A stretch of 64,000 nt of DNA from Dehalococcoidia bacterium (GTDB taxonomy: Bacteria; Chloroflexota; Dehalococcoidia; Lucifugimonadales; UBA1127), in assembly GCA_965116355.1 (NCBI GenBank), contig OZ220679.1, positions 926,669 to 990,668 on the forward strand. Direction: 5' to 3'. Position 1 is the first letter of the stretch. Each line of letters opens with the position of its first letter. The notes beneath the pieces were generated by a model. That model saw only the letters and a program-made list of their open reading frames with translations, searched no databases and was not told where the DNA came from. Position numbers and translations under genes: made by a program. This document shows, piece after piece, positions 1-18,205 of this stretch.

Positions 1-1443
1 ATGCAGGTCGCGGACCAGCTCGCCGATCTCAAGGCGAATCACATGACGGCCACGACGGGCAAGGACGATCTGAAAGACGAGATCGAGCTGGTGCAAGACG
101 AATTGCGGGAGGCACTAGCTGACACACCTGCCCCGGAGAATGCTATCGACTGGCGGGTTGATTTCGCGGAGGTGTTCACTAAGCGGCGGGGGTTCGATAT
201 CGCCATCGCGAATCCTCCTTACGTGCAGTTGCAGACTAATGAGGGTCGCCTGGCAAACAAATACAAAAGCACCGGCTACAAGACCTTCGCCCGAACAGGG
301 GACATTTACCAACTCTTCTTCGAGCGAGGCTGCCAGGCGCTCAAGCCCGCCAACGGCCTGCTGGCATACATCTCTTCAAACAGTTGGCTCAAGGCGGAGT
401 ACGGCAGGTCCACCCGCCGTTACTTCTCCGATGAGCACACACCCCTGCGACTGCTGGAGCTGGGCAAGGACGTTTTCGAGGCGGCCATCGTGGATTCCGG
501 CGTGCTGGTGCTGCGGACGGGGGGTGCCGGCGCGGTGTTCCCCGGCGTCGACATGGACCGTTTACCCTCCAAGCAAGTCCCACCCGCCGAAGTCCTATGG
601 GGCCGCGTGCGGCCCAATAGTGAGGCACCCTGGAGCATCTTGTCCCCTTTGGAGCAGGGCGTGTTAGAGAAGATGCTGGCTGTGGGAACACCGCTGAAAG
701 ATTGGGATATTGCGATTAACTACGGGATAAAGACCGGCTTCAATGACGCCTTCATCATCGATAACCAGACTAAAGAGGGATTGATCGCACAGGACCCGCG
801 ATCCAAGGACATCATCAAGCCCGTACTGCGAGGCCGAGACATTGAGCGCTATCGAGCGAAATGGGCCGGCATGTGGCTCATCGACACTCACAACGGATAT
901 GACGGTGTCCCGCCGATTGAGATCAATGACTACCCTGCCATAAAGACTTACCTCGACGGCCAATACGAGCAATTGGAGAAGCGATACGACAAGGGACGGA
1001 CACCGTATAACCTTCGTAACTGCGCTTACCACGCAGAGTTCACTAAGGAGAAGCTCTTCTGGATAGACCTTACTGAACAGGGCAGGTTCGCGTACGACGC
1101 CAGCGAGATGTTCTGTGTGAATTCTGCATACATGATGACAGGGGATTCGATCAAATACCTATGCGCGGTACTTAACTCCACCCTCGTGACTTGGTTCATG
1201 GGGAGCAGCGCACTCAATTCAGGGATGGGTACCACTAGGTGGGTTAGATTCACAGTCGATCGCATTCCCGTTCCCACAATTGACACTACGAGGCAGCGGC
1301 CTTTTATCCAGCTTGTAGACAAGGTTTTGCATGCCCGCAGTGTCAAGGGGAATACGCGAGAGTTAGAGGCGGACATTGATCGACTAATCTATGCTCTGTA
1401 CGGCCTTACTGAGGATGAAATTCAGTGGATGGCCAGTAGCTGA
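1..1443 (+). CDS. N6-adenine DNA methyltransferase, Eco57I/PglX-like (type IIG / BREX-type); 5' end lies outside the window; C-terminal TaqI-like target-recognition domain (TRD)
   Basis: ORF is open to the window edge. Catalytic motif IV NPPY is present (DIAIANPPYVQLQ). C-terminal blocks GIKTGFNDAFIIDNQTKE, KPVLRGRDIERY, YLCAVLNSTL and YGLTEDEI are typical of TaqI-like specificity domains. Confidence 0.85.
   Translation: MQVADQLADLKANHMTATTGKDDLKDEIELVQDELREALADTPAPENAIDWRVDFAEVFTKRRGFDIAIANPPYVQLQTNEGRLANKYKSTGYKTFARTGDIYQLFFERGCQALKPANGLLAYISSNSWLKAEYGRSTRRYFSDEHTPLRLLELGKDVFEAAIVDSGVLVLRTGGAGAVFPGVDMDRLPSKQVPPAEVLWGRVRPNSEAPWSILSPLEQGVLEKMLAVGTPLKDWDIAINYGIKTGFNDAFIIDNQTKEGLIAQDPRSKDIIKPVLRGRDIERYRAKWAGMWLIDTHNGYDGVPPIEINDYPAIKTYLDGQYEQLEKRYDKGRTPYNLRNCAYHAEFTKEKLFWIDLTEQGRFAYDASEMFCVNSAYMMTGDSIKYLCAVLNSTLVTWFMGSSALNSGMGTTRWVRFTVDRIPVPTIDTTRQRPFIQLVDKVLHARSVKGNTRELEADIDRLIYALYGLTEDEIQWMASS
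741..778. repeat. Left arm of a 38-bp inverted repeat (candidate recombination site) inside the methyltransferase gene
   Basis: CAATGACGCCTTCATCATCGATAACCAGACTAAAGAGG matches the reverse complement of 2241-2278 at 37/38 positions. Flanking homologous coding sequence is clearly more diverged. Confidence 0.8.
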
Positions 1444-1506
1444 AGTTCTTGGGTCCTTCACTACCTTTGCAAGAGCAGCGGCCCGCCGGGCCAGATGCAA
1501 ATGGGC

Positions 1507-2361
1507 CTAAAGGTGTTCTTCGACTTCCGAAATCTCCTGCGGAGTTAGCCCGTAGAGCTGATACACCTTCTTATCAATTTCTGCTTCAGTCAATGATGTG
1601 TTGGACGCCTGATCCTTCACCTTGACTCGAATGATCTGATCAGTCATTTCGATGAACAGCCGCTGATTGCCGGGAGTGAGGCTTGGGATTGGGATGCGCT
1701 CAACTGCGAACTTCTTCCACTGAGGCAGCCCCATGCCAGTTGTCAATGCCGCGGTCTTCATTAGCCAGGCGATCAAGGTGCTGTTGAGGACTGCACACAG
1801 GTATTTCAAAGACGCACCGGTCATCATGAAGCCCTTGTCGTTGCAGAACATTTCATCATTGGAGTAGCTGAATCTACCTCGCGCGGTCATATCCATCCAA
1901 AACAGCTTCTCTCTCTTGAAATCCTCGTGGTAAGCGCAGGTATCCTGCATTTCGAACCACGCATTCGTGGTCTTTTTCCTTGCTTTGCTGGCGTTAGGCA
2001 GGGGTTTGCCCCTAGAGATAAACCCATTAGGCAACGTTACCCCTGACTGCTCTAATCGTGCTTTGCCAAAGCAAAGCAAATGCTCCTTGACAGCCGGATA
2101 GTCGTTGATGTTGAGACCAAGAGCAGGGAAGGTGGCTATAAGCCAATACCCTTTCCAGTGTGCTTGGTATCGCTGGATGTCTCTTCCCCGCAGCACTGGC
2201 TTGAGTATCTCGGCGGACTTGGGGTCTTGGGCTACCAGTGCCTCTTTAGTCTGGTTATCAATGATGAAGGCGTCATTGAGACCAGTGGTTATTCCTCTAT
2301 AAATCGCATATCCGTGCGATGAAGACCCAGGGCGTGACTCATGTTCGCCCAGTTGAAGCAC
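1507..2361 (-). CDS. Silent alternative TRD cassette: inverted, 5'-truncated paralog of the methyltransferase C-terminus with no methyltransferase core
   Basis: Protein blocks parallel those of 1..1443: GITTGLNDAFIIDNQTKE, KPVLRGRDIQRY, LKYLCAVLNSTL, YGLTPQEI. Homology starts only at the inverted repeat; the N-terminal approximately 20 aa of the ORF are unrelated. Orientation is convergent with the active gene. Confidence 0.7.
   Translation of the reverse strand: MLQLGEHESRPGSSSHGYAIYRGITTGLNDAFIIDNQTKEALVAQDPKSAEILKPVLRGRDIQRYQAHWKGYWLIATFPALGLNINDYPAVKEHLLCFGKARLEQSGVTLPNGFISRGKPLPNASKARKKTTNAWFEMQDTCAYHEDFKREKLFWMDMTARGRFSYSNDEMFCNDKGFMMTGASLKYLCAVLNSTLIAWLMKTAALTTGMGLPQWKKFAVERIPIPSLTPGNQRLFIEMTDQIIRVKVKDQASNTSLTEAEIDKKVYQLYGLTPQEISEVEEHL
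2241..2278. repeat. Right arm of the 38-bp inverted repeat
   Basis: Reverse complement equals 741-778 except for one C/T difference. Confidence 0.8.
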
Positions 2362-2457
2362 TTGAGCCTACCATTCTTGTCATCCAGCAAAGCCATGCTT
2401 GCAGAACCCATACGCACGGACAACCTGTAGTCATGTGCCAAAAGCAGGGAGGCCAGG

Positions 2458-3426
2458 ATGATAGACCGGACAGCAACAGGAATAGGGGTGTCAGTGGACG
2501 AGCTCCCATCCGAATTGGCTGACAACACCAAGACGGCATATCAAAAGGGATGGAAAAAGTTCATCGACTTCTGTGCTGCAGGAGACATTACCGATCCTCT
2601 TGCCGCATCTCCTAGTGACGTCGTCAATTTTCTTGTCCAACTGGCCACTCAGGCCAACCCACAAAGTGGGGTGACTCCCTCAATGGGCACTGTGTTGCTC
2701 TACAAGAGCGCGGTGAACAAGAAATACCTCGCTGCCGGGCAATCATCGCCTACGGGACACCCATCGGTACAGTCGACGCTCAAAGGGCTCGCAAGGCTCA
2801 AGGGATCCTCACCGCGTCAGGTGGAAGCATTTCGCGAATTCCATATCACCGCGATGTTGAAATCATGCCCCACTTCTCTCATAGGTAAGAGGGATGCTGC
2901 AATCATCGCACTTGGTTTCGCAGGGGCGCTACGCCGGTCGGAGATCTGTGGGCTGATGGTCGAGGATGTAGAGTTCATAGATCCCACAGCCACGGAGGCG
3001 CCGCGCATTTGGCTGACGATTCAGCACTCCAAGACAGACCAGCACGGGCGCGGGCAGAAGATAGCAATCGTGGACGGACAAGGTATCCGCCCAATAGAAC
3101 ATCTGCATTCGTGGCTTGACGCTGCCGGTATCTCGAAGGGCCCACTATTCCAGTCCATGAGGCGTGGCGGGCACCTGCGCGGCAATCCCATGCACCACAG
3201 CGACGTCCCGCGCATTCTGAAATACTACGCCACCAAAATCGGGCTAGATCCCAAGAACATAGCAGGACATTCGTTGAGGGCAGGATTCGTCACCAGTGCG
3301 GCTGTTCACAATGCCCGGTTAGACAAGATCATGGCCGTCACCCGCCATACTGACCCTGCGACCGTCCTGCGATACATACGCGATGCGGATGCCTTCACAG
3401 ATCACGCAGGACAGCATTTCCTCTAG
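2458..3426 (+). CDS. Tyrosine site-specific recombinase (phage-integrase / XerC-D family)
   Basis: N-terminal SAM-like core-binding region (TKTAYQKGWKKFIDFC). C-terminal catalytic region (ALRRSEI, HSLRAGFVTSAA, TRHTDPATVLRYI). GGGAGG lies upstream of the ATG. Confidence 0.85.
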   Translation: MIDRTATGIGVSVDELPSELADNTKTAYQKGWKKFIDFCAAGDITDPLAASPSDVVNFLVQLATQANPQSGVTPSMGTVLLYKSAVNKKYLAAGQSSPTGHPSVQSTLKGLARLKGSSPRQVEAFREFHITAMLKSCPTSLIGKRDAAIIALGFAGALRRSEICGLMVEDVEFIDPTATEAPRIWLTIQHSKTDQHGRGQKIAIVDGQGIRPIEHLHSWLDAAGISKGPLFQSMRRGGHLRGNPMHHSDVPRILKYYATKIGLDPKNIAGHSLRAGFVTSAAVHNARLDKIMAVTRHTDPATVLRYIRDADAFTDHAGQHFL

Positions 3427-3427
3427 G

Positions 3428-3456
3428 CTGACTAGCTTCCAGCCCATGGATATAAT
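3428..3456 (+). promoter_or_regulatory. Predicted sigma70-type promoter for the toxin-antitoxin pair
   Basis: CTGACT (3428-3433), a 17-nt spacer, then TATAAT (3451-3456), about 90 nt upstream of the antitoxin ATG. Confidence 0.35.
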
Positions 3457-3543
3457 GAGATGAACATCCTCTACTCCACTATACCTCCAACACTACTGGC
3501 GACCCTAAGGAAGCCGGAGGGGCCGATAGGGAAGGTGCATGGC

Positions 3544-3828
3544 ATGACGACACACGTGAGAGCGCGATACTCCAATGGGGTGCTGACGCCGCTGGAGCCT
3601 CTGGACTTGAAGGAGGGCTCCGAGGTGACGGTGTCGGTGGAAGAGGACAATGGCGCAAAGGCGGAAGTACAGAACGCCGGGGGGCCGTTAGCCAGCGTGC
3701 TGGCTCTGGTCCAGGAGATGGAGAATACCATTCCCCCGGAGGAATGGGCATCCCTTCCTACCGATGGTTCCAGAAACCATAAGCACTACTTGTACGGGCA
3801 TCCAAAGGAAGAGGACAGATGCGACTAG
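3544..3828 (+). CDS. Antitoxin, AF2212/DUF104-like (partner of the PIN toxin)
   Basis: VRARYSNGVLTPLEPLDLKEGSEVTVSVEE matches the DUF104 signature as I recall it. Internal ATG at 3544 chosen as start. The 3' end overlaps the toxin start by 10 nt. Confidence 0.75.
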   Translation: MTTHVRARYSNGVLTPLEPLDLKEGSEVTVSVEEDNGAKAEVQNAGGPLASVLALVQEMENTIPPEEWASLPTDGSRNHKHYLYGHPKEEDRCD

Positions 3829-4241
3829 TCTTCGTGGATGCCGGGCATTGGATCGCCCTGTGGAACCCGCAAGATGCGTTGCACCAAAGGGCGGTGGCCC
3901 TCTCCAGCACCTTGCAGGACGCTCAGCTAGTCACCACACAGTCTGTGTTGGCAGAGACCCTCGATTTCATGGCAGCCGCGGGGGAGTTTCGGCGGCTGTA
4001 TGCCGTACAGATGGTGCGTGACCTGGAAAGGAACCCCAACATCGAGATCATCCCGCAGACGGCGGTACAGTTCCGAGGTGCCGTCGAGCGGTATGCCGCG
4101 CGCAGCGACCAGCGGTGGAGCCTAACGGACTGCGCGAGCTTCCTTGCCATGGAGGAACGGGGCATCACGGAGGCCTTGGCCTACGACCGGGACTTTGAGA
4201 GGGCAGGTTTCCGTGCCCTGCTGCGAGAGGACCCCGCATGA
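3819..4241 (+). CDS. vapC: PIN-domain toxin (VapC-like ribonuclease)
   Basis: N-terminal VFVDAGHWIAL with the conserved Asp, and later acidic residues (SLTDCAS, YDRDF). About 140 aa, translationally coupled to the upstream small ORF. Confidence 0.8.
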   Translation: MRLVFVDAGHWIALWNPQDALHQRAVALSSTLQDAQLVTTQSVLAETLDFMAAAGEFRRLYAVQMVRDLERNPNIEIIPQTAVQFRGAVERYAARSDQRWSLTDCASFLAMEERGITEALAYDRDFERAGFRALLREDPA

Positions 4242-4275
4242 CCTCCGCACATTACTCCGCCAAGGATGTGCTGCG

Positions 4276-7200
4276 TTGAACATCCTTCACGCCACGACGG
4301 AGCCGACGCTGCTGGCCCGTCTCAAAGAGATGCTGGGCAGCTCGGCGAGTGCTGACATTGCCGTCGGTTACTTCTTCATCAGCGGCTTTGAGGCAGTGGC
4401 CGACGACTTTGCTCGATTGGGCAAGGTTCGCATCCTGGTAGGGCGCACGGACCGGCAAGTGCTGGACGAAGTCGCGCTCGGCCTGCAGCAGCAGCAAGCG
4501 CTGAGCGCGCGGCTGCGTGCGGATTCGCTCGTGCAACGCAGCCAACGAAGCCAGATTGCCCAGGAGACCATCGAACACGTTGCTGAAGGCATCGCAGTGC
4601 TCCCACAGCAGCGGGGCTCGGAGGAGGCGGTTTCAAAGTTGAGGGACATGGTGGCGCAAGGCAAGTTGGAGGTGCGGGCCTACTTGCGGAGCCCCCTGCA
4701 CGCCAAGGCGTACCTCTGCTGGTATGAGAATCACGCGGAACCCGGCTCCGCGGTGGTGGGGTCCTCCAACCTCACCCTTGCAGGGTTTACCGGCAATACT
4801 GAGCTCAACGTTCGCGTTACTGGTGACGCGGAGATGGAAGCCTTGCGTGAATGGTTCGACGCCCTGTGGAAGGAGTCTGAGGACATCAGCGGTGCCTTAG
4901 TCGCCGAGTTGGAACGCTCGTGGGCGCTGGCTAAGACCCCGCCGTACCACGTGTATCTGAAGGCGCTGTATGAGCTGTACTACACCGATGCGGGAAGCGG
5001 ACAACTGACAGTTCCCCCGCGTGACCAGGGGCTGGCCAATTTCCAGTTGGATGCGGTGCGTCGCGGGCTCTCGATGATCAGGCAATACGGCGGCTGCTAC
5101 ATCGGCGATGTGGTCGGGCTGGGCAAGACCTTCGTCGGCGCCGAGCTCCTGCACCAGCTTCGCATGAGCTATCCCAACGATGGCCCGCCTCTCATCCTTT
5201 GCCCAGCCAGGCTCAAGCCGATGTGGGAGCGATTCAACGAGCGGTTCGCGCTAGGTGCGGAAGTCGTCTCACACAGCATGATAGGCGCGCCGGCCGACTC
5301 CGAGTTCGATGAAGAGTTGGGCCGCTACGTAGATGTCGCTCAGCCAGGGCAAGGAGTCGTTCTCGAGCAAATGTACCGCAACCGGGGGCCGGTGCTGGTG
5401 GACGAGGCGCACAACTTTCGCAACATCAACCAGCGGTCCAGGGGGCTCGCCAGCTACCTGGAGTCGAGTGAGCACAAGGTCATCCTTATGAGCGCCACAC
5501 CGCAGAACCTTGGGCCGATGGACGTTTACCGCCAACTCCGCCTGTTTCTCCACGACACCGAACACGACCTGAATATCGAACCAATCAGTCTTGAGTCCTA
5601 CTTCCACAACGCCCAGCTGTGGCTGGTGTACCGTGCCGAGTATGAGAACTACGAGGCTGCGTACAGCGCATGGCAGGCGGCCGGATCAAGAGGGGCGCCG
5701 CCTCTGCCTCCCACCAAGCCAGGTGTTCTAAAGGCTGAAATCGACCAAGTGCTCATGCCCGTCTTTGTGCGTCGCCGACGCAAGGACATCCGTGACCTGT
5801 ATGGAGACACAGCGGAGATAGACGGCAAGCCAGTCCGCTTCCCCGAACCAGTGCTCGACAACGTGGAGTACCGGCTGGACAAGGTGTACGCAAAGGCAGG
5901 CCCCTTCGACGAGTTACAATCGCTAATCCTTGACCATCAGGCCGCTCGGTATCGTGCGACGGAGTACATCAAGGAAGCAGCGAAAGGGAAAGCAGAGTAC
6001 CGTGACCTCTTCCGTGCGGGGGACAGGATCGCCCGGCTTATGGGTGTCCTGCTACTGAAGAGGCTGGAGTCGAGCATTGAGGCATTTCGCTCCACATTGA
6101 CCTCCCTCCTTACAAGCAACCGGAACTTTCGACAGGCGCTGGATGCCGGCTTCGTTCCCATCGGGAGCACGGCCACGCGCATGTTGGCCGGCCAGTCGTT
6201 CGATGTCGATGATTTGTTGGAGGTTCTTACCCAGGAAGAACAGCGTCGACAGCAGGCTGGAAGCGGGCGAGACAAGCTAGTCCATGCGACCGACGACTTC
6301 GAGACCGATAGATGGAGCCAAGACCTGGATGCCGACTACGAGGTCTTGGAGAGCATCCTCGGCCGTGTTAAAGAAATCGGGCCAGAAGACGATGACAAGC
6401 TGCGGGCTCTCCGGGAGTTTCTCGCCAGGCCGGAGGTGAAGTCGGGGAAGGTGTTGATCTTCTCCGAAGCAGAAACCACAGTGGAATACCTATACAGGGA
6501 GCTCAATCCTGGCGGGGACCTGGCACACATCGCGCGCTTGACTGGTAGCACCAGCAACGTCGCAGAAAGCGTCGTCAAGCGATTCTCGCCCACGTGGAAC
6601 CTGGGAGCACGGGAGTCTATGCCTGGGCCGGAGATACAAGTGCTCTTGGCCACGGATGTCGTTTCCGAGGGCCAGAACTTGCAGGACTGTGCCTGCGTTC
6701 TGAACTATGACTTGCACTGGAACCCTGTGCGCCTCATCCAACGGTTCGGGCGGGTCGACCGGATCGGCACGGAACATGAAGTCATCAACCTGCACAACAT
6801 GTGGCCCGACCTCGCAGTTGATGCCGAACTGTCCCTGACGGAGCGGCTTCACCGACGCATTCAATCCTTCCATGACCTCATCGGCTTGGACAGCAAGCTC
6901 CTCTCCGACTCTGAGCGCCTGAACACTGGAGCGATGTATCGCATATACCAAGAAAAGGCCCTACCGGAGATGGATGACGGGCTTGATGAGGTGGCTGCCA
7001 ATCAGCGTGCGATTACGTTGCTCCAGCGCATACAGGAAGAGGACCCGGCGTTGTGGCAAACAATCACGCGGTTGCCGGACGGCATAAGGTCGGCCCTGTC
7101 GGTGCACGAAGAGCAGCCTGAAGCCTCGAACGAGCAGTACGCCCAAGCCGTGCTTGCTGTTGACGGGATGCAGGCCCCTCTGATCTCGCCGACGACCCTG

Positions 7201-7770
7201 ACTTCGATTGCTACTCCCTTTGACGACCCCAAACCAGGGGAGACTCTGGTTCTGCTAAGCGCGGGCGGGGTTAAGAGCTGCTACGCCGTCGACAGCAACC
7301 TGCAACCGCGTGCTATCAGTCCTGCCCAACTCATCGCGGCGGCTGAATGTGGCCCCGACACGCCAGCACAACAGCTGCCACAGGACACGAATGAACGCGT
7401 AATGGCAGCGTTCGAAACATTCTTCGCGGACTTCCAACGTCGGCTCGGGAGAGCTAGAAGGACGCGTGACACAAGAGTTCGTCGCTATATCTCTCGCCAC
7501 CTCGGTATCGCCATTCGTGAGGCGAGTGAGGAAACAAGTTTTGTGAGCCGGATCGACGTGTTGCGTCAGATATTCCTAAGTGACGTGTCGCCGCAGGTTG
7601 AGAGCGCTTTGGGCGAAATCAGGAATATGCAGCTCGAGGGCCCCGCACTCGTGACTCGCCTTGAGGCCCTCCGAGAGCGCTACCGTCTCAACCCACCCGA
7701 TGAAGCTGAAGTCGCTCAGAGCGTCGAGCCCCAGGTGATTCGCATAGTCTGCTCGGACGGGCTCGTTTAG
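4276..7770 (+). CDS. PLD-family nuclease domain fused to an SNF2-family (SF2) helicase, with a long uncharacterised C-terminal region
   Basis: N-terminal HxK PLD motif (SPLHAKAYLC...GSSNLTLAG). SNF2 motifs are I GDVVGLGKT, II LVDEAHNFRN, III LMSATPQN. Helicase-C is LATDVVSEGQNLQDC...NYDLHWNPVRLIQRFGRVDRIG. Start is uncertain: TTG 4276 is chosen because it follows the PIN stop and AAGGA, and ATG 4330 is the alternative. Confidence 0.8.
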   Translation: MNILHATTEPTLLARLKEMLGSSASADIAVGYFFISGFEAVADDFARLGKVRILVGRTDRQVLDEVALGLQQQQALSARLRADSLVQRSQRSQIAQETIEHVAEGIAVLPQQRGSEEAVSKLRDMVAQGKLEVRAYLRSPLHAKAYLCWYENHAEPGSAVVGSSNLTLAGFTGNTELNVRVTGDAEMEALREWFDALWKESEDISGALVAELERSWALAKTPPYHVYLKALYELYYTDAGSGQLTVPPRDQGLANFQLDAVRRGLSMIRQYGGCYIGDVVGLGKTFVGAELLHQLRMSYPNDGPPLILCPARLKPMWERFNERFALGAEVVSHSMIGAPADSEFDEELGRYVDVAQPGQGVVLEQMYRNRGPVLVDEAHNFRNINQRSRGLASYLESSEHKVILMSATPQNLGPMDVYRQLRLFLHDTEHDLNIEPISLESYFHNAQLWLVYRAEYENYEAAYSAWQAAGSRGAPPLPPTKPGVLKAEIDQVLMPVFVRRRRKDIRDLYGDTAEIDGKPVRFPEPVLDNVEYRLDKVYAKAGPFDELQSLILDHQAARYRATEYIKEAAKGKAEYRDLFRAGDRIARLMGVLLLKRLESSIEAFRSTLTSLLTSNRNFRQALDAGFVPIGSTATRMLAGQSFDVDDLLEVLTQEEQRRQQAGSGRDKLVHATDDFETDRWSQDLDADYEVLESILGRVKEIGPEDDDKLRALREFLARPEVKSGKVLIFSEAETTVEYLYRELNPGGDLAHIARLTGSTSNVAESVVKRFSPTWNLGARESMPGPEIQVLLATDVVSEGQNLQDCACVLNYDLHWNPVRLIQRFGRVDRIGTEHEVINLHNMWPDLAVDAELSLTERLHRRIQSFHDLIGLDSKLLSDSERLNTGAMYRIYQEKALPEMDDGLDEVAANQRAITLLQRIQEEDPALWQTITRLPDGIRSALSVHEEQPEASNEQYAQAVLAVDGMQAPLISPTTLTSIATPFDDPKPGETLVLLSAGGVKSCYAVDSNLQPRAISPAQLIAAAECGPDTPAQQLPQDTNERVMAAFETFFADFQRRLGRARRTRDTRVRRYISRHLGIAIREASEETSFVSRIDVLRQIFLSDVSPQVESALGEIRNMQLEGPALVTRLEALRERYRLNPPDEAEVAQSVEPQVIRIVCSDGLV

Positions 7771-7915
7771 GCGGACTCGGTGTCCCCTAGTCACCACTTC
7801 ACTCCGCTCATCCTGACAAGACGCGGCTTGGCCTTCGTGTCGAGTCTTGATTCAGGAGTTCAGAACGAAAGACCGAAATGTTGCTGGCATCTGTGGAAGT
7901 AAGGTGAAACAAGCA

Positions 7916-10318
7916 CTAGGTGTCGGATTCGGAAGCTAATCGCAACACAACTGAGGGCCCGGACCAAGAGGGCAAAACACGAATGTCGAGGGGGATCCCT
8001 ATTGCAAGAAGTGACAAGACGTCATCATGGTGATCTGGTCCAACGGTGCCTACGATTTCGCCATTCACGTAGACTGCAATTGGCGCAGGTGCCAGTTGAT
8101 TCGGCTCATACGTGAGTCTAGCCGTGGCCTCTTCATAAACTGGCACGCGTTCGTCGTATGCAATTGTGTATTCTTCGCCTTCAAGAACCTCGTTTACAAG
8201 TCGTAGGCTCGGGTCTCTCGCGAAAGCCAATAGGTCGGCTATCTCCGTGGGAGAAGCATCGAACTTCTCTCGCCACGCCGCAATGCTCTGACTCGCAACC
8301 CATTCACGTAGGGACATGTCCGCGAATTCACTGCCAGCCGCTCGGTGATCCTCTGCTACGCGGTTGGCAAGCCTTCGGGAGCGTACGCCTCCCAACATGA
8401 GGTTCAGAGCACTTCTTGTAGCGACGCCATAGTGCACTGACGCGGCGAGATCATTCGGTATGCTGTAGGGAATCGCCTCTTTCTCAAGGTTTTCGTTCAC
8501 CCAGTCAACCAAGGTATTTAGAGCCCAAGGCAAATGGTGCTCAAAGACAGACGCGACAAACTCTACAAGCTGTTCGTATCGGTAGTCTTCATTTTGAACA
8601 GAGGCCAAGTACTTGTCTGCTAGGTCTTGAAGATCTGTTCCGGATACCCAATCAATGAGAAGCATCATTAGGTCAACGGGAAGGAGACTATCCCTCGGAG
8701 CGTTACGGATCTCCTTGAAGCCCATTCTTCGGTTTTCGGACAAATGAAGGACTTTCTCAAGACGCCCTTCACCAAGGATCATCGAAATGGCCAACGGCGG
8801 CTCGCTTTCGGCAATGTCGGACGTTATCGAATTGAGCACTTCTAATGTGATTTCCTCTAGTGTCGCAGCACTGGGAAGCGACATTCCAGACTGCGTCCAT
8901 CTTCTGCGTCGGTCAACCGGCAGCACCGAGAAAGCACGAAATGCTCGTGTCACAATCTCGCGCCATTGCACTCTGCTGTTCTCGTCCAACTGTTGCCAAG
9001 CGAGGGTGGACGTGAGTGCCTCCAGTACATCGTCAAGGGTCGCGGACCGACCAAGCTCCGCTAAAGCTTGCGCGATAAGCCATACGGAGCGTACGAATCC
9101 ATTTGCTTCTGAACCAAAGTGAGCAAAAATGGCGTCTTCTTGTGCCCTTGCACTCTCCTCCAGTCGCGCCAACTGAGCCAATGCCTCTTCTGACGTCATG
9201 GTGGATCGCATGTCCAGGTCCCTTGCAGTTTGGTCAAGAGGGCGGAACATTGAACGGTTAAAGGTGGCATGCTCCACAAGTATCAGCCAACCCTCGGTTT
9301 CGCGCCCCGCTCGACCTGCCCGTCCGATGGCATTGAGGAGGCGTGCACTATCTACAACTTCGACGACCCCCTCTGAGTCTCTATAGCCGCGCTCAGCTAC
9401 AATTACGCTCTTGAATGGAAGGTTGACACCCTCAGTCAACGTAGTGGTTGCGACTAGGCAATTGATTTGACCAATTCGGACAGCCTCCTCGATTTCAGAC
9501 TGAACATCGATAGGAAGCGCCGCATGATGAAACGCAACACCTTTGGCGATTACTCGCGTTAGCGGGTGTTCAGACCCGAGCCTCGTTCTCACTAGATCAG
9601 TCAATGCAAAAGAGGTAGGGTCATCTTCCATAGAGTTGGCAATCCTCTCGGCAAGCCTTTGTGCGGAGCCCTTGGTCGACACAACGATCAAGACGGAACC
9701 CGAAGACTGGACATGGGTGATCAGCGGTAAGAGTTGACCATGCTGAGTGGTGCTCCGTGAAGAGTCTCGGACCCAAACCCCATTCTTCTGCTGACGCATT
9801 ACCAACGTGCCAACGGATTCCGAGAACTCTCCTCGACGAAATGAGCCGGAAAGCCCGGTTCGGAGATGTACCAGGCCCTTGAGGGGGATGAAGCGTCGCG
9901 CAAGAGTATTGCCCGATGGGGGTTGATCGCTCACCGAGCTCCCATCTGCCCTAGCCGTATAGACAACGGCAAGGCGCCGAGGCCCCCTCCAATCTACATG
10001 CCGTGAGAGTACTCCGTTGCCCGAATCCAGCCATGCTGTCACGTGAGCTTGGTTTCCAAGGGCTGCCGATAGCACCAGTATCCTGTGGTGCGAAGTCTTC
10101 GTAAGGTGATGCAGGAGAGAGAGTGTTTCCTCGAGTCTCCAACCACGCTCTCGATCAGCAACAAGGTGCGCCTCATCGATCACAAACATTCCGAACTCGC
10201 TTAGCAGGCCCCCGGGATCACTACGCAATCGGCTAGAAAGCCTCTCAGGGGTCATGACAACGGCTCGTGCTGAAGCTGGCTTGGAGGTTCCAAGTCCTAT
10301 GTCTGGTTCGACATGCAA
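7916..10318 (-). CDS. Ski2/Hel308-like DEAH helicase, C-terminal fragment (HamB-like); carries motifs Ib-VI plus winged-helix/ratchet-like domains
   Basis: VVMTPERL, FVIDEAHLV, VLSAAL, LVATTTLTEGVNLP and IGRAGRAG. The C-terminal LMMLLIDWVSGTDLQDLADKY segment resembles the Hel308 ratchet region. It lacks motif I, which sits in the overlapping upstream ORF. Confidence 0.75.
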   Translation of the reverse strand: MHVEPDIGLGTSKPASARAVVMTPERLSSRLRSDPGGLLSEFGMFVIDEAHLVADRERGWRLEETLSLLHHLTKTSHHRILVLSAALGNQAHVTAWLDSGNGVLSRHVDWRGPRRLAVVYTARADGSSVSDQPPSGNTLARRFIPLKGLVHLRTGLSGSFRRGEFSESVGTLVMRQQKNGVWVRDSSRSTTQHGQLLPLITHVQSSGSVLIVVSTKGSAQRLAERIANSMEDDPTSFALTDLVRTRLGSEHPLTRVIAKGVAFHHAALPIDVQSEIEEAVRIGQINCLVATTTLTEGVNLPFKSVIVAERGYRDSEGVVEVVDSARLLNAIGRAGRAGRETEGWLILVEHATFNRSMFRPLDQTARDLDMRSTMTSEEALAQLARLEESARAQEDAIFAHFGSEANGFVRSVWLIAQALAELGRSATLDDVLEALTSTLAWQQLDENSRVQWREIVTRAFRAFSVLPVDRRRRWTQSGMSLPSAATLEEITLEVLNSITSDIAESEPPLAISMILGEGRLEKVLHLSENRRMGFKEIRNAPRDSLLPVDLMMLLIDWVSGTDLQDLADKYLASVQNEDYRYEQLVEFVASVFEHHLPWALNTLVDWVNENLEKEAIPYSIPNDLAASVHYGVATRSALNLMLGGVRSRRLANRVAEDHRAAGSEFADMSLREWVASQSIAAWREKFDASPTEIADLLAFARDPSLRLVNEVLEGEEYTIAYDERVPVYEEATARLTYEPNQLAPAPIAVYVNGEIVGTVGPDHHDDVLSLLAIGIPLDIRVLPSWSGPSVVLRLASESDT

Positions 10319-11400
10319 TTGTGTCCGAGTGTAAGGAGGCGTCGCCTGAGCGAAACACTAAGCTCGCGACAAAGGCTATGCGTAGGAGCGACGACACATA
10401 CGTCGCCAGTGCCTTCAACAATGTGGGTTGTTACGAAGAGTTGAGCCAATAGGCTCTTGCCGGCGCTAGTGGGGAAGGAGAGGATAATTCTCCGGGCGGT
10501 TGGGTGGAGGGGCGACACACCGCCAGGTGCGTCAGGTGTGAGAAACGACAACTGTGGAGGCCAAAGTTGTAGGACCGGCGGGTCCCCCAGAGTCATTGCC
10601 CGTGCTGCACTTGGTAGGTTGGGAGGAAGAACACTCCATACGGCGGCAGCCTCCAATCCGTCTGAAATCCTCAGGAGGTGCGCGGCTACCCATCTGGATT
10701 CGACATCACTCGGCGCACCCAGAGTCTCAAGCGCTCGCCTGAATTGTCCCCGCGCGCTGTCCAACGAATTATTGCGGCCGTAGGTAAGGAAATCCGTTAG
10801 AGCTCGAGTCCCCCTTATGACGCCGTCAGTTGATGCGTATTTGGAATCTTCGACATTGCCAAATTCAGAAACTAGGCTGTCTAGCTGGTTGGCCCTTGTT
10901 TGAAGTAATGGGTAAAGAGCAGGACGGTCAAGCGCCAGCATCAAGACCCCAGCTTGAAGTGAGACGACTCCAGGGTCATCTAGTTGTTCGGGTTCACGGA
11001 CTATCGAAATCCGACGTGCGAGCGCAGCAGCATTTGGCGTCAACTGCCCGCCGATGTATGCAATTTGCGCCGCAAGTGTGTACTGCAACACTTCCAATTC
11101 TGTCAGGTCCCCGCTTTGGAGAGCGAGATCAAAGACGTGTCCGGAGACCTGATGGGCTTGCCGTTGTCGTTGGAGGTCATAGACTTGGAGGTCCTCCCGA
11201 GCCGTGGCTACGGATTGCAGATACCATGCAACATCAAGCAATTGCGGGTCGAAGTCGGCTTGGCGGGTGAACAGGCCAATCTCAGCAGTGGAAAGCAGGG
11301 TTCGGAGATCGTCAGGAGATGGCAACCGTGGGTGATCGCCTACGGCGTTAGTCAGAAGGTCAATATTTAGTGCCCGATCCACAACCCACAACCCTTCCAA
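10297..11400 (-). CDS. N-terminal fragment of the same helicase: unique approximately 290-aa N-domain plus motifs I/Ia
   Basis: FPTSAGKS (Walker A / motif I) and VVAPTHSLCRE (Ia) near the C-terminus. It ends 22 nt inside the next ORF in another frame. TTG/GTG start candidates at 11400/11382 overlap the upstream gene. Confidence 0.7.
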   Translation of the reverse strand: MEGLWVVDRALNIDLLTNAVGDHPRLPSPDDLRTLLSTAEIGLFTRQADFDPQLLDVAWYLQSVATAREDLQVYDLQRQRQAHQVSGHVFDLALQSGDLTELEVLQYTLAAQIAYIGGQLTPNAAALARRISIVREPEQLDDPGVVSLQAGVLMLALDRPALYPLLQTRANQLDSLVSEFGNVEDSKYASTDGVIRGTRALTDFLTYGRNNSLDSARGQFRRALETLGAPSDVESRWVAAHLLRISDGLEAAAVWSVLPPNLPSAARAMTLGDPPVLQLWPPQLSFLTPDAPGGVSPLHPTARRIILSFPTSAGKSLLAQLFVTTHIVEGTGDVCVVAPTHSLCRELSVSLRRRLLTLGHNCMSNQT

Positions 11401-12221
11401 AGCACTCTTCTTACTTCTTCAGCCAGACTAGGGAAGCCATCGACAAGGTTCAGGTTTCCCTGATGCTGGTCTGAAGGTAAGTCGAAGTAGCTTGTCACAT
11501 TGTTGAAACAACCATGTTCTCCCGTCGCTGGTGAAACGTCAGACCCGACGACTATGCCAACACCGGCAGAGGGATCTTTATCGGCCCAAAGCTCGGCGAT
11601 TCGGGCATAAAACGTGGCAAGTTGGTGATCATCACTAAGGTATTGGGCTACCAGTGAAAACCGAGCCAAGTAGTCGAGGGCACGATCCTTAACCTGTCTG
11701 CACGCAGTGTTGACCGTATCCGTAAGTGGACGTCCAGTGCCATGGAACTTAGACTCCCATAATCTGTAGGAATAGCCTCCGTTTGATTCGTATACAGTCA
11801 AACCGTCGCCGCCTGGATCCGCCACAGACCAGTCATGACTTTCCACTCTGATTGGGATACCAAGACCGACATCCTTGTTGGCTACAACGGCCTGCCATAT
11901 GGCCTCAGCAACGAGGCCATATAGATGCTCCTCTACAGCTGGTTCAGTTGGCGTTCCAACATTCTCAAGAAGCGACTGTTGAAGGACTCTTGCGGCAACG
12001 TTGTCAAGTGCCTCGTCTATGCCGTCAATCGCACGGCAGTGCCACAGTCCAAAAAGCCTCTTATCCATCAACCGACGTGATGCAATGCTGCAGGCCAAGG
12101 ATGCCGCAGCTGCGTCACGATTGGCTGATGCGAGGCGCCCATACAAACAAAATACCCCGGCCGCCGTAGTTTTGATTGAAAAGGTCAGAAGCGCTGGGAG
12201 GGGTGCACAAGATGCCTTCAT
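11367..12221 (-). CDS. HamA-like protein (DUF1837-type, PD-(D/E)xK nuclease-like); upstream partner of the helicase
   Basis: GDGLTV...YRLWESKFH gives a D...ExK arrangement. About 230-280 aa, directly upstream of and overlapping a Ski2-like helicase, as in Hachiman loci. ATG 12068 is an alternative start. The family call is from memory and was not searched. Confidence 0.5.
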   Translation of the reverse strand: MKASCAPLPALLTFSIKTTAAGVFCLYGRLASANRDAAAASLACSIASRRLMDKRLFGLWHCRAIDGIDEALDNVAARVLQQSLLENVGTPTEPAVEEHLYGLVAEAIWQAVVANKDVGLGIPIRVESHDWSVADPGGDGLTVYESNGGYSYRLWESKFHGTGRPLTDTVNTACRQVKDRALDYLARFSLVAQYLSDDHQLATFYARIAELWADKDPSAGVGIVVGSDVSPATGEHGCFNNVTSYFDLPSDQHQGNLNLVDGFPSLAEEVRRVLWKGCGLWIGH

Positions 12222-12793
12222 AGGAAGTACATCCCATCGCGGGGCATGGCCTGTTCCGTCGCAGAAGCGCTAGCGGGCTCGAGCAACAAGACGGAAGCGA
12301 GCGCCGTTCTTGTCTTGGTGCAAGCCTTGCGATGAAATAACTCCACTTACTTGTCCTGCTCCCGATACGTTTGGACTGTAGGTGAGAGTAACATGCCAGT
12401 GCCCTTGCGGTCAGCCTCAGTCCCTCAAATGGGGTCTGAGGGAGTTGTCTAGACGCTCCTAAGCAGATACTTGAACGGGAACGCACTGTCAATGAAGCAA
12501 CCATAGCTGCTACTCTGGGCCGTTGTTGGGTCAAGCCGTGGCATCAGGGAGGGATTTGGCGGAAGGAGTGTCCGACGCAAACAGGGTGTTCCGGCGCTGT
12601 TCTATGACCAGCCGGACCGCGCCTCATGCAACGTTAGCACAAGCCCATGGGTGAGTGGCCTGGAACGTTCATCGACCTGTGAGAAGTCATGGTCGACCAA
12701 GGCCGGATCGAGCTCGAGGCATAAGTTCCCAGGAAACCTCGATTTGAAAGGGTCGAATCGATCCCAGCCACAACGCGAGAAGCACATTACCTA

Positions 12794-12838
12794 CGTCAAC
12801 GTCGGCCTCCCCACGATGCTACCCTCTTCGCAACAACG
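12794..12838. repeat. Partial copy (A) of an approximately 95-nt repeat family
   Basis: CCTCCCCACGATGCTACCCTCTTCGCAACAACG aligns with the cores of the copies at 18206-18299 and 26003-26096. Confidence 0.5.
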
Positions 12839-12848
12839 TGATCGGTAG

Positions 12849-13181
12849 GCACAGAGGGAGGAGAGCACGAGATTGGCGCGCTCGTCGATCTATCGACACA
12901 CGGACCCTGGTTTCTTCCCGCGGCCCGTACACGATGAACCAAGCGCCGTCCAATGGCGGAAGAGCGATATCGTCGCGTGGCTGGAGTCCCTGCTGTATAG
13001 TTCAGTGGTATTCGCGGAACTAGTGGCGGCAGCGATGAAGAAGGAACGCCAGCCTCCCAAGACTCCAACGGAGCACAAAGACCGCACGCAGCTGGGCGAG
13101 GTCAGGATCCACTACGCTCCTGGCCCCGACGCCCGTGACCGGTTGCGCCGTGCCTTCCTCCTCATCCTCTCGGCCGCCTAA
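12849..13181 (+). pseudogene. Decayed AlpA-family excisionase/regulator gene (N-terminally truncated, no proper start)
   Basis: LARSSIYRHTDPGFFPRPVHDEPSAVQWRKSDIVAWLES parallels LARSTIYRLMEQGAFPRPVRVGPSAVRWRESDITQWMAS at 30528..30737, and nucleotide identity is visible (GATTGGCGCGCTCG...). An in-frame stop at 12846 removes the first helix. Confidence 0.6.
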
Positions 13182-13922
13182 CACGAAGCCGCTTCGGGAG
13201 GTAATGACAATGACACGGGCATTCGCCCACCGCGGGAAACCAGAGACTAGGTAAGAACGCCTGCACCACCGCTGCCGCATACGTACGTGTAGGGGGCCTC
13301 TCACCTACCGCATTGCACGCTTGCGACCCTTCCGTTTCCCCATACAGGCCTCCCACTGCTAAACTGGCCTTGGGGCGATTGCACTCTTGCCCCGGGCCCG
13401 CGATCACCCGCCGGCGCGCTGGGCGGCATGCGGCCCCAACGATCTCCCCGGCGGCGGCACATGGCCGGCGATGTCGGCGACCCACAGCGGCCGCCATTCC
13501 GGTCAGGTCGGCGAACCAGCCCGCCCCTGCCCCCACTCGGGGGGCGGTGATCGCGCCGTGGCAGGACCCCGTTCAGGGCCACCCAGGCGCTGCGGCACCG
13601 TGCCCCAGTCTAAGCTCTCGCCGATGCGCAGGCTGGCCGCGCCCGGGGGAGAGACCGTCTCCTGGCGCCTGGCCTGCGGCCCCCGGTACCGAATGCCCCG
13701 CCCGATTGACGGCTGCACCCCTCGCGGCACGATAGTGCGGTGCATCCACCACGTCGTCTGGCCACCATTGAAGGACTTACGCTGAAAGTTCACCTAGATT
13801 TGCACCGATAATTCACCCCCACGTCACAGAACATCCCCTATTATCTTCATGGGAGTATGCGCTTGCTGACCGGCGGGCCTGGGACCTGCCGGGGCAGCGC
13901 CAGTGTTGCTCAACGGACAAGG

Positions 13923-16900
13923 ATGCGAGGTATGGCAGAGAAGAAACGGACGGGCTTCCTCTTCGCGATTCTGGCGGTGGTTCTCATGGTCGTTGGCTGT
14001 GAGTCGCAGGAACCTTCTGCCTTTACGGCCCCTGAGGCCCAAGAACACCGAGAGCCAACCGTCACCCAGACGCCCGCTGCAAGCCTGAAACTTGGCAATC
14101 CTACGCCCACTCCAACGGCTGTCGTGGCCCAGGAAACCGGTACTACTGATAGTGGCCTTATACCCACTCCAACGGCTGCCGTGGCCCGGGAAACCGCTAT
14201 TTCTGATAGAGGCTTGACACCTACTCCGACGGCAGCCGCAATCCAAGAATCCAATGCAAAGGACAATAGCCCTGCCCCCACCCTCGAAGCATCGCCAACC
14301 CCCAAGAGGAGTGACGAGTGCGTCACAGGGGTCGCTGTGGTGGACGCCGACGACAACCCGGGGCTGGTCTCCGACTGCACCACTCTGCTGGCGGCGCGAG
14401 ACACCCTGGCGGGCAATGCCACGCTTAACTGGTCGGCGGACACGTCCATCTGGCAATGGGATGGCGTCTCTATATGGGAGACGCCTCATCGCGTGAGGGG
14501 CTTGTATCTGGAGTCCAGGCAACTAAGTGGGGAAATACCGCCGGAGTTAGGCGACTTGGCCAGCCTCCGGCAACTGAACCTCAGCGACAACCAGCTGAGC
14601 GGGGCGATCCCACCGGAGTTGGGCGACCTTGCCAGCCTGACCGATCTGACCCTCAGCGACAACCAGCTGAGCGGGGCGATCCCGCCGGAGTTGGGTGACC
14701 TTGCCAGCCTGACCAATCTGACCCTCAGCGACAACCAGCTGAGCGGGGCGCTGCCCCCGGAGTTGGGGAGCCTCGCCAACCTGGAGTCACTGCGGCTGCA
14801 GGACAACCGGTTGAGCGGAGAGTTGCCCCCGGAGTTGGGCAACCTCGCGAACCTGGAATGGGTTTTTCTTGCCAACAACCAGCTAATCGGGGAGATACCG
14901 CCGGCGATGGGGAACCTCGCCAACTTGATAGTTCTGGCGCTCAGTGGAAACCAGATCGACGAATGCGTCTCCATCGCAGTGCCGGACGTGGCCAATAACC
15001 CGGGGTTGCTGTCTGACTGCCGCGCACTGGTGGCCGCGCGGGACACGCTGTCGACGCATAGCGTCCTTAACTGGCTGGCGACGACGCCCATCAGTGAGTG
15101 GGACGGGGTTCACGTGAGCGGGACACCAAAGCGGGTGACGGCAATTCGAGTGCGACGTGGTTGGTTGGATGGGAAGATACCTGTTGAATTGGGCGCCCTT
15201 TCCAGTCTGACCAGTCTGGACCTCAGTGACAACCAGCTGCGTGGGGCGATCCCGCCGGAGTTGGGCAACCTCGTCAAACTGGAGTCACTGCGGCTGCAGG
15301 ACAACCAGTTGAGCGGAGAGTTGCCCCCGGCGTTGGGAAACCTCGCGAACCTCACAGAGTTGAACCTCCACGGCAACCGACTAGGCGGGGAGATCCCGAC
15401 GGAGCTAGGCGTCCTCACCCGCTTGAGAGTCCTGAGCATCGGGAGGAATGGTTTCAGCGGGGAGATCCCGCTGGAGTTGAGCGCACTTGTCGACCTGAGG
15501 AGACTCAATCTCGGGGGCAATTTGTTGAGCGGGGAGATCCCGTCGGAGTTGGGCGCCCTCCCCAACCTAACGTCACTGGACCTCGGAGTGAACAAGTTCA
15601 GCGGGGCGATCCCGTCAGAGTTGGGGAACCTCTCCAACCTGGAGCTTCTGAGCCTCGAAAGGAACCAGTTCAGCGGGGCGATCCCGCCAGGGTTGGGAAA
15701 CCTCACCAACCTGGAGTCACTGGACCTCCATGGCAACCAGTTGAGCGAGGAGATCCCGCCGGCGTTGGGTAATCTCTCCCCCCTGACGGAACTATGGCTC
15801 GGGGGCAACCAGCTAAGCGGGACGATCCCGGCCGAGTTGGGCAAACTTATAAACCTGACCGATTTGTACTTGAGCCATAACGAGTTGAACGGGGCGATCC
15901 CGCCGGCGTTGGGCGGCCTCACCAACCTCCTATGGATGGATGTCAACGACAACCGGCTGAGCGGGGCGATACCGCCGGCGTTGGGCAACCTCGTCAATCT
16001 GACGGAGCTGAACCTCAGCGACAACCGGCTGAGCGAGGCGATACCGCCGGCGTTGGGCAACCTCGTCAATCTGACGGAGCTGAACCTCAGCGACAACCGG
16101 CTGAGCGAGGCGATACCGCCGGCGTTGGGCAACCTTGCCAGCCTGACCAGTTTGAACCTCAGCGACAACCAGTTGAGTGGGGCGATCCCGCCGGAGTTGG
16201 GCAACCTCGTCAATCTGACGGAGCTGAACCTCAGCAATAACCAATTGAGTGGGAGTTTGCCGCCAGAATTGGCCAACCTCGTCAACCTGGAAAGGCTGTT
16301 CCTCAGCGGCAATCAGTTCAACGAATGCGCGTTACTTCCAGTGGAGGAAGTCGACCCCACCCCGGGGCTCCAATCCGACTGCCGCGCTCTGCTGGCGGCG
16401 CGGGGCCCCCTGGGGGGCGACTATTCGCTTAACTGGTCAGCGCTCACCCCCATCGCCCAGTGGGACGGAGTTCGGGTGAGTGGGACACCCCAGCGCGTGA
16501 CGGCATTGCAAGTGCATACCAAGCATTTGAGCGGCGAGTTACCTCCGGTGCTGGCACAGCTCTCCAACCTGACAGAATTGGACCTCAGTGGCACCCGGTT
16601 GAGGGGGGCGATCCCGCCGGAGTTGGGGAACCTTGCCAACCTGACCGTCTTGGAACTTGGGGGCAACCAGTTGAGCGGGGAGATCCCGCCGGAGTTGGGC
16701 AACCTTGTGAACCTGACCGTATTGGACCTTCGGAACAATCAGTTGAGTGGGGTAATGCCACCGGAGTTGGGCAACCTCGCCAGCCTGAGGGAGATGACCC
16801 TCAGTGACAACCAGCTAAGCGGGACGATCCCGGCCGAGTTGGGCAACCTCGCCAATCTGGAAGTGCTGTTGCTAAAGGAAAATGCGTTGAGCGGGGCCAT

Positions 16901-17822: not shown

Positions 17823-18205
17823 AGGGGTGTTGGGCCATCGCAGCCAGGACATCCACTGACCTGCCTTCCCAAAGACTGATCCGAGCTGAATGCTAGTCGT
17901 AGACTTCAGAAGAGTGGGCAGGTCCGTTGCACCGTTTCCCTTTCGGTCCGTAGGGTACGACATGGTCAAATTGGAAGCCCGCTCCTAGCCGCCTGCGTTG
18001 CACTTTGGTACCAGAGGCACGTGAGTTGAGATCCTGAGGCGGCCTAACCAAAAAGGCTCAAACCGGTCATTCGACTCGCCGTACGGGCCCCAGCCACATT
18101 TCGCAAACGGTACTGCCCAGCTTCAACCTCGGCCCATCCGAGAGTATTCGAACCAACCACTGGAGCCACCCCTGTGCCTACAGCCGAATCCCAAAGACGG
18201 TACTG

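Follow-up and report, generated by a model that had tools for sequence, protein, structure and literature searches.

A probable recombinase-driven shufflon on the target-recognition domain of a Type IIG-like Eco57I-family methyltransferase in a Dehalococcoidia bacterium

Why does a methyltransferase gene carry, just behind its stop codon, a reversed second copy of its own 3′ part, followed by a gene for a tyrosine recombinase? The arrangement lies at the start of a 64,000-nucleotide (nt) stretch of contig OZ220679.1 from a Dehalococcoidia bacterium (assembly GCA_965116355.1); this whole stretch is called the window below. An initial annotation of this DNA proposed that inversion between a single pair of repeats swaps the C-terminal target-recognition domain (TRD) of an Eco57I/PglX-type methyltransferase. 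The present analysis points to a related, more elaborate answer: the locus is very probably a recombinase-driven shufflon on the TRD of a Type IIG-like, Eco57I-family adenine methyltransferase. Instead of one repeat pair as the boundary of the inversion, three nested inverted-repeat pairs (IR0, IR1 and IR2) were found, which split each TRD into three segments (seg0, segA and segB). The parts of the locus are as follows.

1..1443, plus strand: expressed methyltransferase gene, its 3′ 480 codons; Eco57I catalytic region with NPPY, then the TaqI_C TRD
705..717, plus strand: IR0-L, GGATATTGCGATT; outermost repeat, start of the homology to the silent copy
718..739, plus strand: seg0, version 1; encodes NYGIKTG, with the F codon (739-741) lying across the border to IR1
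740..778, plus strand: IR1-L, the repeat of the initial annotation; core TTCATCATCGATAACCAGACTAAAGA
779..1019, plus strand: segA of the expressed TRD (type ‘a’)
1020..1033, plus strand: IR2-L, CTGCGCTTACCACG; 14 nt exact, 18/22 over 1020-1041
1034..1443, plus strand: segB of the expressed TRD (type ‘a’), stop codon included
1507..2361, minus strand: silent TRD copy, an open reading frame (ORF) of 284 amino acids (aa); TaqI_C only (3.2e-13), without the methyltransferase core
1507..1925, minus strand: segB of the silent copy, segB(s)
1926..1939, minus strand: IR2-R
1940..2240, minus strand: segA of the silent copy, segA(s)
2241..2279, minus strand: IR1-R, the partner of IR1-L
2280..2301, minus strand: seg0, version 2, in the silent copy
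2302..2313, minus strand: IR0-R, GGATATGCGATT on the minus strand
2458..3426, plus strand: tyrosine recombinase, 322 aa; Phage_integrase 5.7e-14; outside the invertible segment

The expressed ORF matches the Pfam families Eco57I (1.7e-26) and TaqI_C (2.2e-14). The silent ORF lies 63 nt past its stop codon, tail-to-tail on the opposite strand, and its homology to the expressed gene covers 1507-2313; a diverged, core-less paralog about 60 bp downstream had been described correctly. The recombinase ORF starts 96 nt beyond the silent ORF, in agreement with the earlier estimate of about 100 bp. The near-identical 38-bp repeat was also recovered, one base longer than claimed, as IR1 (38/39 identical, sole mismatch 759/2260). 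What did not hold was its placement right where shared sequence gives way to variable sequence. The two copies are homologous from some 35 nt further upstream, starting at the IR0 sequence GGATAT(T)GCGATT, and a short variable segment of 22 nt, seg0, runs from IR0 to IR1. Upstream of GCGATT the bases shared by the IR0 arms stand in different frames (D-I-A-I versus G-Y-A-I); thus, the likeness there lies at the DNA level, not at the protein level.

How far do the repeats stand out from the copies that carry them? In a codon alignment the two TRD copies share 51% of amino acids, 56% of nucleotides and 37% of third positions, and amino-acid identity between the expressed and the silent TRD is only 47-48% in segA and segB. 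In the 13 codons of IR1, by comparison, third-position identity is 0.92. The IR1 arms share their codon phase (codon 2280-2278 is the counterpart of the one that ends at 741), and by codon arithmetic the IR0 arms are in phase too. A loose core common to IR0, IR1 and IR2 can be read by eye (GCGATTAAC, TCGATAAC and GCGCTTACC), and their dyad symmetry was likewise inspected by eye; both are suggestive and were not counted as evidence. Inversion in silico of 779-2240, of 1034-1925, or of both left intact hybrid frames, with C-terminal parts of 503, 483 and 500 aa, respectively, compared with 480 aa in the native arrangement. Furthermore, R159, K192, H271, R274, H297 and Y306 of the recombinase align with the catalytic residues of XerD, and all six are present. 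Judged by its sequence, the window’s own switch looks functional.

We propose the following mechanism. The silent TRD would be a promoterless second TRD lying tail-to-tail on the other strand. The recombinase would pair the two arms of one repeat and invert the DNA between them, and the constant methyltransferase core would thereby be joined in frame to the other TRD or to a part of it. An inversion at IR0 or IR1 would swap essentially the whole TRD, and one at IR2 only its distal two thirds; four main TRD variants would result, or eight with seg0 counted. Together, the methyltransferase and a PLD-SNF2 helicase-nuclease would form a restriction-like defence system, and switching would change the methylated motif and thereby the target of the helicase-nuclease. 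The recombinase at 2458-3426 presumably catalyzes the exchange, IR1 and IR2 would be its sites rather than hot spots of homologous exchange, and inversion presumably still happens in this genome.

Is the combination of parts more than an accident of one genome? A recombinase scan over one genome per species gave 30 loci (designated by L numbers below), mostly from Dehalococcoidia and other Chloroflexota metagenome-assembled genomes (MAGs). The full module of methyltransferase core, expressed TRD, reversed silent TRD and recombinase is present in about 20 of these 30 recombinase loci. Other relatives (L001, L003 and L045-L048) have neither the silent copy nor the recombinase and keep the methyltransferase, VapBC and the PLD-helicase. 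Silent copy and recombinase, being absent jointly, thus come and go as one add-on to a basic system. These findings bear on the view that the association is fortuitous, in which the reversed copy is a duplicate on its way to decay and an unrelated mobile element, carrying VapBC, brought the recombinase as its integrase. Such an element would suit the G+C of the region, which is lower than in the rest of the window, and the toxin-antitoxin pair that follows the recombinase. However, in about 20 loci the recombinase adjoins the 5′ end of the silent TRD whatever lies beyond, and across those loci VapBC is present or absent and the helicase lies upstream or downstream. VapBC is also present in recombinase-less relatives, and nearly all loci have an intact ORF as silent copy. 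The conserved module, together with flips between near-identical assemblies (see below), already contradicts a fortuitous association, which we regard as extremely improbable.

Has the segment in fact been seen in both orientations? Two pairs of near-identical relatives, L018/L035 and L005/L006, carry it in opposite orientations. Specifically, L035 (LXNJ01000741.1) over 1390-8650 is colinear with L018 (DAOUHQ010000013.1) and 99.6% identical over 7.3 kb, from the recombinase onwards, and positions 1-1533 of L035 are 100% identical to the reverse complement of L018 8241-9773, the segment with both TRDs. L005 and L006 have flanks of 99.5% identity and an exchange at IR0 at either junction; the flip junction is IR0 in both pairs. 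With the recurrent module, these flips and the intact frames of the simulated inversions, the proposal that inversion swaps the C-terminal TRD is well supported. Three independent metagenome contigs also end exactly at IR1 (L007 1-30, L008 1-33 and L035 1-30). Such ends fit mixed orientations and could equally reflect repeat length, and lend the proposal weak support.

At which repeats, then, has DNA been exchanged? Conservation of the repeats as DNA is one line of evidence. Among 39 TRD sequences, the modal-codon fraction is 0.90 in IR1 and 0.89 in IR2 versus 0.53 for codons of equal conservation in the remainder (Mann-Whitney p = 1.6e-5 and 1.5e-4, respectively), a result that is stable with one copy per locus. 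The cassette-less relatives have a similar peptide at IR1 and IR2 with varying synonymous sites, and a direct scan of L001-L003 for the IR1 core gave no match within 5 mismatches. The initial annotation had asked whether the 38-bp block is the only part conserved among homologs at the nucleotide level; the block is so conserved, and so is IR2. The arms of IR0 and of IR1 match better within than between loci (permutation p <= 0.0002). At the free third position of the GCN codon in IR0, all four bases occur from locus to locus; as read by eye, the two arms agree in this base wherever both are listed. IR2 hardly varies across loci.

The second line of evidence comes from mosaics. The TRDs of the relatives were cut into segA (IR1 to IR2) and segB (IR2 to stop), and each part was compared with those of the window. 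L015 has the window’s arrangement (segA/segB identities of 84%/85% aa for the expressed and 82%/82% for the silent copy). L004 has the whole TRD exchanged: its expressed copy is 78%/88% identical to the silent copy of the window, and its silent copy 74%/83% identical to the expressed one. In L011 segB alone is exchanged, the expressed segA being 93% identical to the window’s expressed copy and segB 81% to its silent copy, and the silent copy of L011 has the reverse combination. The expressed copy of L024 represents the fourth combination of segA and segB. Besides, both positions can hold either version of seg0, and these versions are found in all possible linkages with the segA types. Mosaics and seg0 linkages together thus indicate crossovers at all three repeats in the history of the family.

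Several points weigh against a shufflon worked by one recombinase at three repeats, and two alternatives have to be considered along with them. The recent flips in relatives break at IR0 and not at the 38-bp IR1. The case for IR1 and IR2 comes from the older mosaics, which could instead have arisen by homologous recombination or gene conversion. IR2 of the window has only 14 nt exact, and IR2 arms are no better matched within than between loci (p = 0.18). These points would suit a two-state switch, with IR0 as the only site of the recombinase and the TRD always flipped as a whole. IR1 and IR2 would then not be recombinase sites, and their mosaics and conservation would be the work of RecA-type recombination or gene conversion, acting between the two inverted copies as well as between cassettes of different lineages. 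It also agrees with such a switch that IR0 marks the limits of the cassette in which L006 and L012 are 95% identical, and that perfect, conversion-like tracts of 85-189 nt extend from IR1/IR2 in L009, L010, L021 and L024. By contrast, synonymous-site conservation at IR1 and IR2 extends over about 20 species with the stretches between them not conserved, and the mosaics change exactly at the IR1/IR2 blocks. The shortness of the window’s IR2 also counts the other way, as 14 exact nt are short for homologous recombination, and the loose core that IR0, IR1 and IR2 share by eye would point in the same direction. We therefore consider exchange at IR0 alone rather unlikely, while retaining it as the chief competitor of the three-repeat shufflon.

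The remaining contrary points concern activity in the present genome. The cassette has decayed in some relatives: about 1.2 kb of the TRDs is missing from L005 (9311-9599), with only 240 nt from IR1-L to IR1-R, and in L020 and L031 the expressed genes are truncated at or near IR1, L031 having an extra C just before IR1. An exact-protein look-up of the recombinase found nothing on record, leaving both orientations unseen in this genome, and a metagenome scan with the recombinase gave no match above 71% identity and no same-species contig from which orientation could be read. The methyltransferase gene is cut by the start of the window, where its integrity is seen for the 3′ part only. Finally, the change of methylated and restricted motif is one that we infer. 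A cassette that was inverted once and no longer switches in this genome would agree with the decayed versions in relatives and with the lack of direct evidence for heterogeneity from look-up and scan. Against such a relic, all parts of the window’s cassette are intact, IR1 at 38/39 and IR0 and IR2 present; both TRDs are open, the six catalytic residues of the recombinase are in place and every simulated arrangement is in frame. A frozen cassette is improbable on these grounds.

What kind of recombinase would work this switch? Its more distant relatives (51-61% identity) have divergent paralogous outer-membrane genes on either side, whose 5′ parts form long inverted repeats: paired TonB-dependent receptor genes in L026 (7043-13891; 5′ inverted repeat of 795 nt, 83%) and paired DUF1302 genes in L030 (6816-14531; 854 nt, 94%). 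Since these distant relatives are flanked by inverted-repeat paralogs, the recombinase fits an invertase rather than a phage integrase. The same recombinase clade, which may be one of dedicated invertases, probably serves L026 and L030 as further invertible loci. The sources of L026 and L030 are a Gammaproteobacteria MAG and a Binatia MAG. In L036 (6013-9874), an unassigned metagenome contig, a single receptor gene lies beside the recombinase.

To which defence system does the methyltransferase belong? Two further features of the window enter here.

3460..4241, plus strand: AF2212-like antitoxin (3460-3828) and PIN toxin (3819-4241)
4144..7770, plus strand: PLD (HKD) nuclease fused to an SNF2 helicase, 1208 codons; PLDc_2, SNF2-rel_dom and Helicase_C

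The ORF at 4144-7770 matches the PADLOC HKD+Snf2 model at 8.9e-61, and the true start of this gene is probably near 4276. For the methyltransferase of the window, PADLOC gave REase_MTase_IIG at 1.8e-93 versus PglX at 4e-10 and DrmMI at 2.9e-16. By these profile matches the gene is a Type IIG-like Eco57I plus TaqI_C methyltransferase paired with a PLD-SNF2 helicase. The relatives examined for a PLD-SNF2 neighbour have one; the L003 locus stops short of the place where it would lie. The cassette-less relatives have an operon plan of methyltransferase, variable cargo, often with AF2212/PIN, and PLD-SNF2 helicase; the helicase is 1146-1167 aa long, 72-83% identical to that of the window, and split in two in L046. 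The AF2212/PIN pair also occurs in the recombinase-less L001, L046 and L047, as a recurring toxin-antitoxin insert in the defence operon.

Other assignments were tried and rejected. The earlier designation as Eco57I/PglX-type keeps its first half only: as a BREX PglX, the protein scored 54.4 bits (partial protein) with NCBIfam BREX_1_MTaseX, against a cut-off of 500, and for the full-length homolog in L004 the best PglX match in PADLOC was 9.9e-20 versus 4.3e-168 for Type IIG. No brxA, brxB, brxC, pglZ or brxL was found among the window ORFs searched in 1-18 kb, and no brx/pgl partner gene among the called genes around the relatives. Class 1 DISARM was set aside with no DrmA or DUF1998 (DrmB) protein in the window or the relatives, the low-ranking DrmMI match given above and only a partial DrmD match. 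A Type I hsdS was set aside as well, the TRD being a TaqI_C domain fused to the methyltransferase and no Type I genes being found in the profile matches of the window ORFs. MANTIS/Gao_RL (bioRxiv 10.64898/2026.09.23.753747) requires an AAA+ ATPase and a co-regulator, neither of which is among the window ORFs searched.

The methyltransferase gene begins outside the window, and relatives give an idea of the whole protein. In the cassette-bearing L004, 5750-8836 is one methyltransferase ORF of 1028 aa. In the cassette-less L001 (9237-12355) the methyltransferase is split into ORFs of 248 aa and 784 aa, with the first ~210 aa in the separate upstream ORF. The N-terminal parts of the two are 58% identical and belong to no Pfam family. 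For the N-terminal ~400 aa of the L004 protein, where a true Type IIG enzyme would have a nuclease domain, there is no Pfam match and no relative of solved structure, and the PADLOC IIG model matches weakly (residues 166-381; 7.4e-34).

Can the cassette move between host genes? The IR0-to-IR0 segments of L006 (8091-9644) and L012 (8110-9666) are 95.1% identical and lie in opposite orientation. Outside the cassette, the two loci are 60.9% identical in the methyltransferase core, 60.2% in the spacer to the recombinase and 78.7% in the recombinase. Similarly, segA of the window has 94% nucleotide identity to segA of L011, whereas the methyltransferase cores share only 57% of amino acids. We tentatively read the IR0-to-IR0 segment as a horizontally exchangeable specificity cassette that has possibly been moved among different methyltransferase genes via recombination at IR0; the odds of this reading are somewhat short of even.

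The surroundings of the locus have the composition of a region of their own. G+C is 0.50-0.62 in 1-18000 of the window versus 0.68 in 20000-64000; it is lowest in the two TRDs (0.51), compared with 0.60 in the methyltransferase core. The defence island thus looks acquired, and the composition of the TRD cassette looks different again from that of its host gene. No further copy of the TRD or the recombinase was found within the whole 64-kb window. A promoter and terminator scan of 1-4400 gave counts equal to the shuffle expectation and was uninformative. On the minus strand, within 7916-12221, a Hachiman-type (HamB-like) DEAD-box helicase is present as two overlapping ORFs (7916-10318 and 10297-11400), a split that suggests a frameshift, and is preceded by a 284-aa ORF at 11367-12221 without a family match. 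These Hachiman-type genes may be a second, possibly damaged, defence system beside the first. Two eukaryote-like repeat proteins adjoin the island: a 1321-aa protein consisting nearly entirely of leucine-rich repeats (13857-17822, plus strand) and a 616-aa RCC1-repeat protein (19992-21842, minus strand).

How does the locus compare with known switches? Examples of hsdS shufflons are the ivr/SpnD39III locus of S. pneumoniae and the hsd loci of Mycoplasma pulmonis. Type I hsdS shufflons have, like the locus described here, inverted silent partial specificity genes, an adjacent tyrosine recombinase, and several repeat pairs that give combinatorial half-TRD variants. They switch methylation specificity, as would presumably the present one. 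In contrast to them, the target here is a C-terminal TaqI_C TRD fused to the methyltransferase and not an HsdS subunit, hsdM and hsdR are lacking, and the nuclease-motor is the PLD-SNF2 protein.

Closer relatives are found outside Type I. Milman, Yelin and Kishony (2023) reported Eco57I-domain methylases to be ~16-fold enriched among predicted inversion targets, and the inversion classes confirmed by long reads comprised Cj0031-homologous Type II restriction-modification (RM) enzymes, DISARM-like DrmMI and BREX-1 PglX (PMC9881135). The precedent of pglX inversion named in the initial annotation is thus sound, since both PglX and Eco57I-type enzymes are confirmed inversion targets in that work. 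In the same survey, site-specific integrase genes were enriched near inversion loci and some loci had more than two variants (PMC9881135). Two of the Cj0031-type cases, in Bacteroides ovatus (CP083813.1 and CP044495.1), adjoin a PLD plus SNF helicase gene (PMC9881135). Such Cj0031-type systems, homologous to Cj0031 of C. jejuni, resemble the present one in the Eco57I-type methyltransferase/TRD as target, in the PLD and SNF2 partner, and in inverted repeats inside the coding sequence; here the host belongs to Chloroflexota, and the kinship is judged by domain architecture. BREX type 1 PglX inversion is documented in Lacticaseibacillus rhamnosus GG (Goldfarb 2015, as cited in PMC9881135). It shares with our locus a large Eco57I-related adenine methyltransferase with an invertible variable region and an adjacent recombinase. 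L. rhamnosus, however, swaps the middle part by two nested inversions, and here the whole C-terminus would be swapped. Class 1 DISARM DrmMI (PMC9881135) is likewise an inversion-target methyltransferase with an SNF2-type helicase and a PLD nuclease, whereas the present system is without DrmA and DrmB (DUF1998) and has PLD and SNF2 fused in one protein.

Since inversions are confirmed in Eco57I-type enzymes with PLD and SNF partners (PMC9881135), this kind of switch is already known. The confirmed inversions came from Actinobacteria, Bacteroidetes, Firmicutes and Proteobacteria, and Chloroflexi are absent from the main text of that report (PMC9881135). What is new here is the Chloroflexota host, the layout of three nested repeats in one TRD (as set against the text of PMC9881135, not its figures) and the natural flips in public assemblies; there are also signs of cassette exchange between divergent host genes. 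The present study thus offers a well-documented case of probable inversion switching of specificity in a non-Type-I restriction-like system of uncultured Chloroflexota, with the switch pinned to three short repeats. Any one assembly shows such a locus in a single state, and its genes come out split or truncated from gene callers. Populations of these bacteria would have mixed epigenomes and mixed phage resistance if their TRD variants methylate different motifs.

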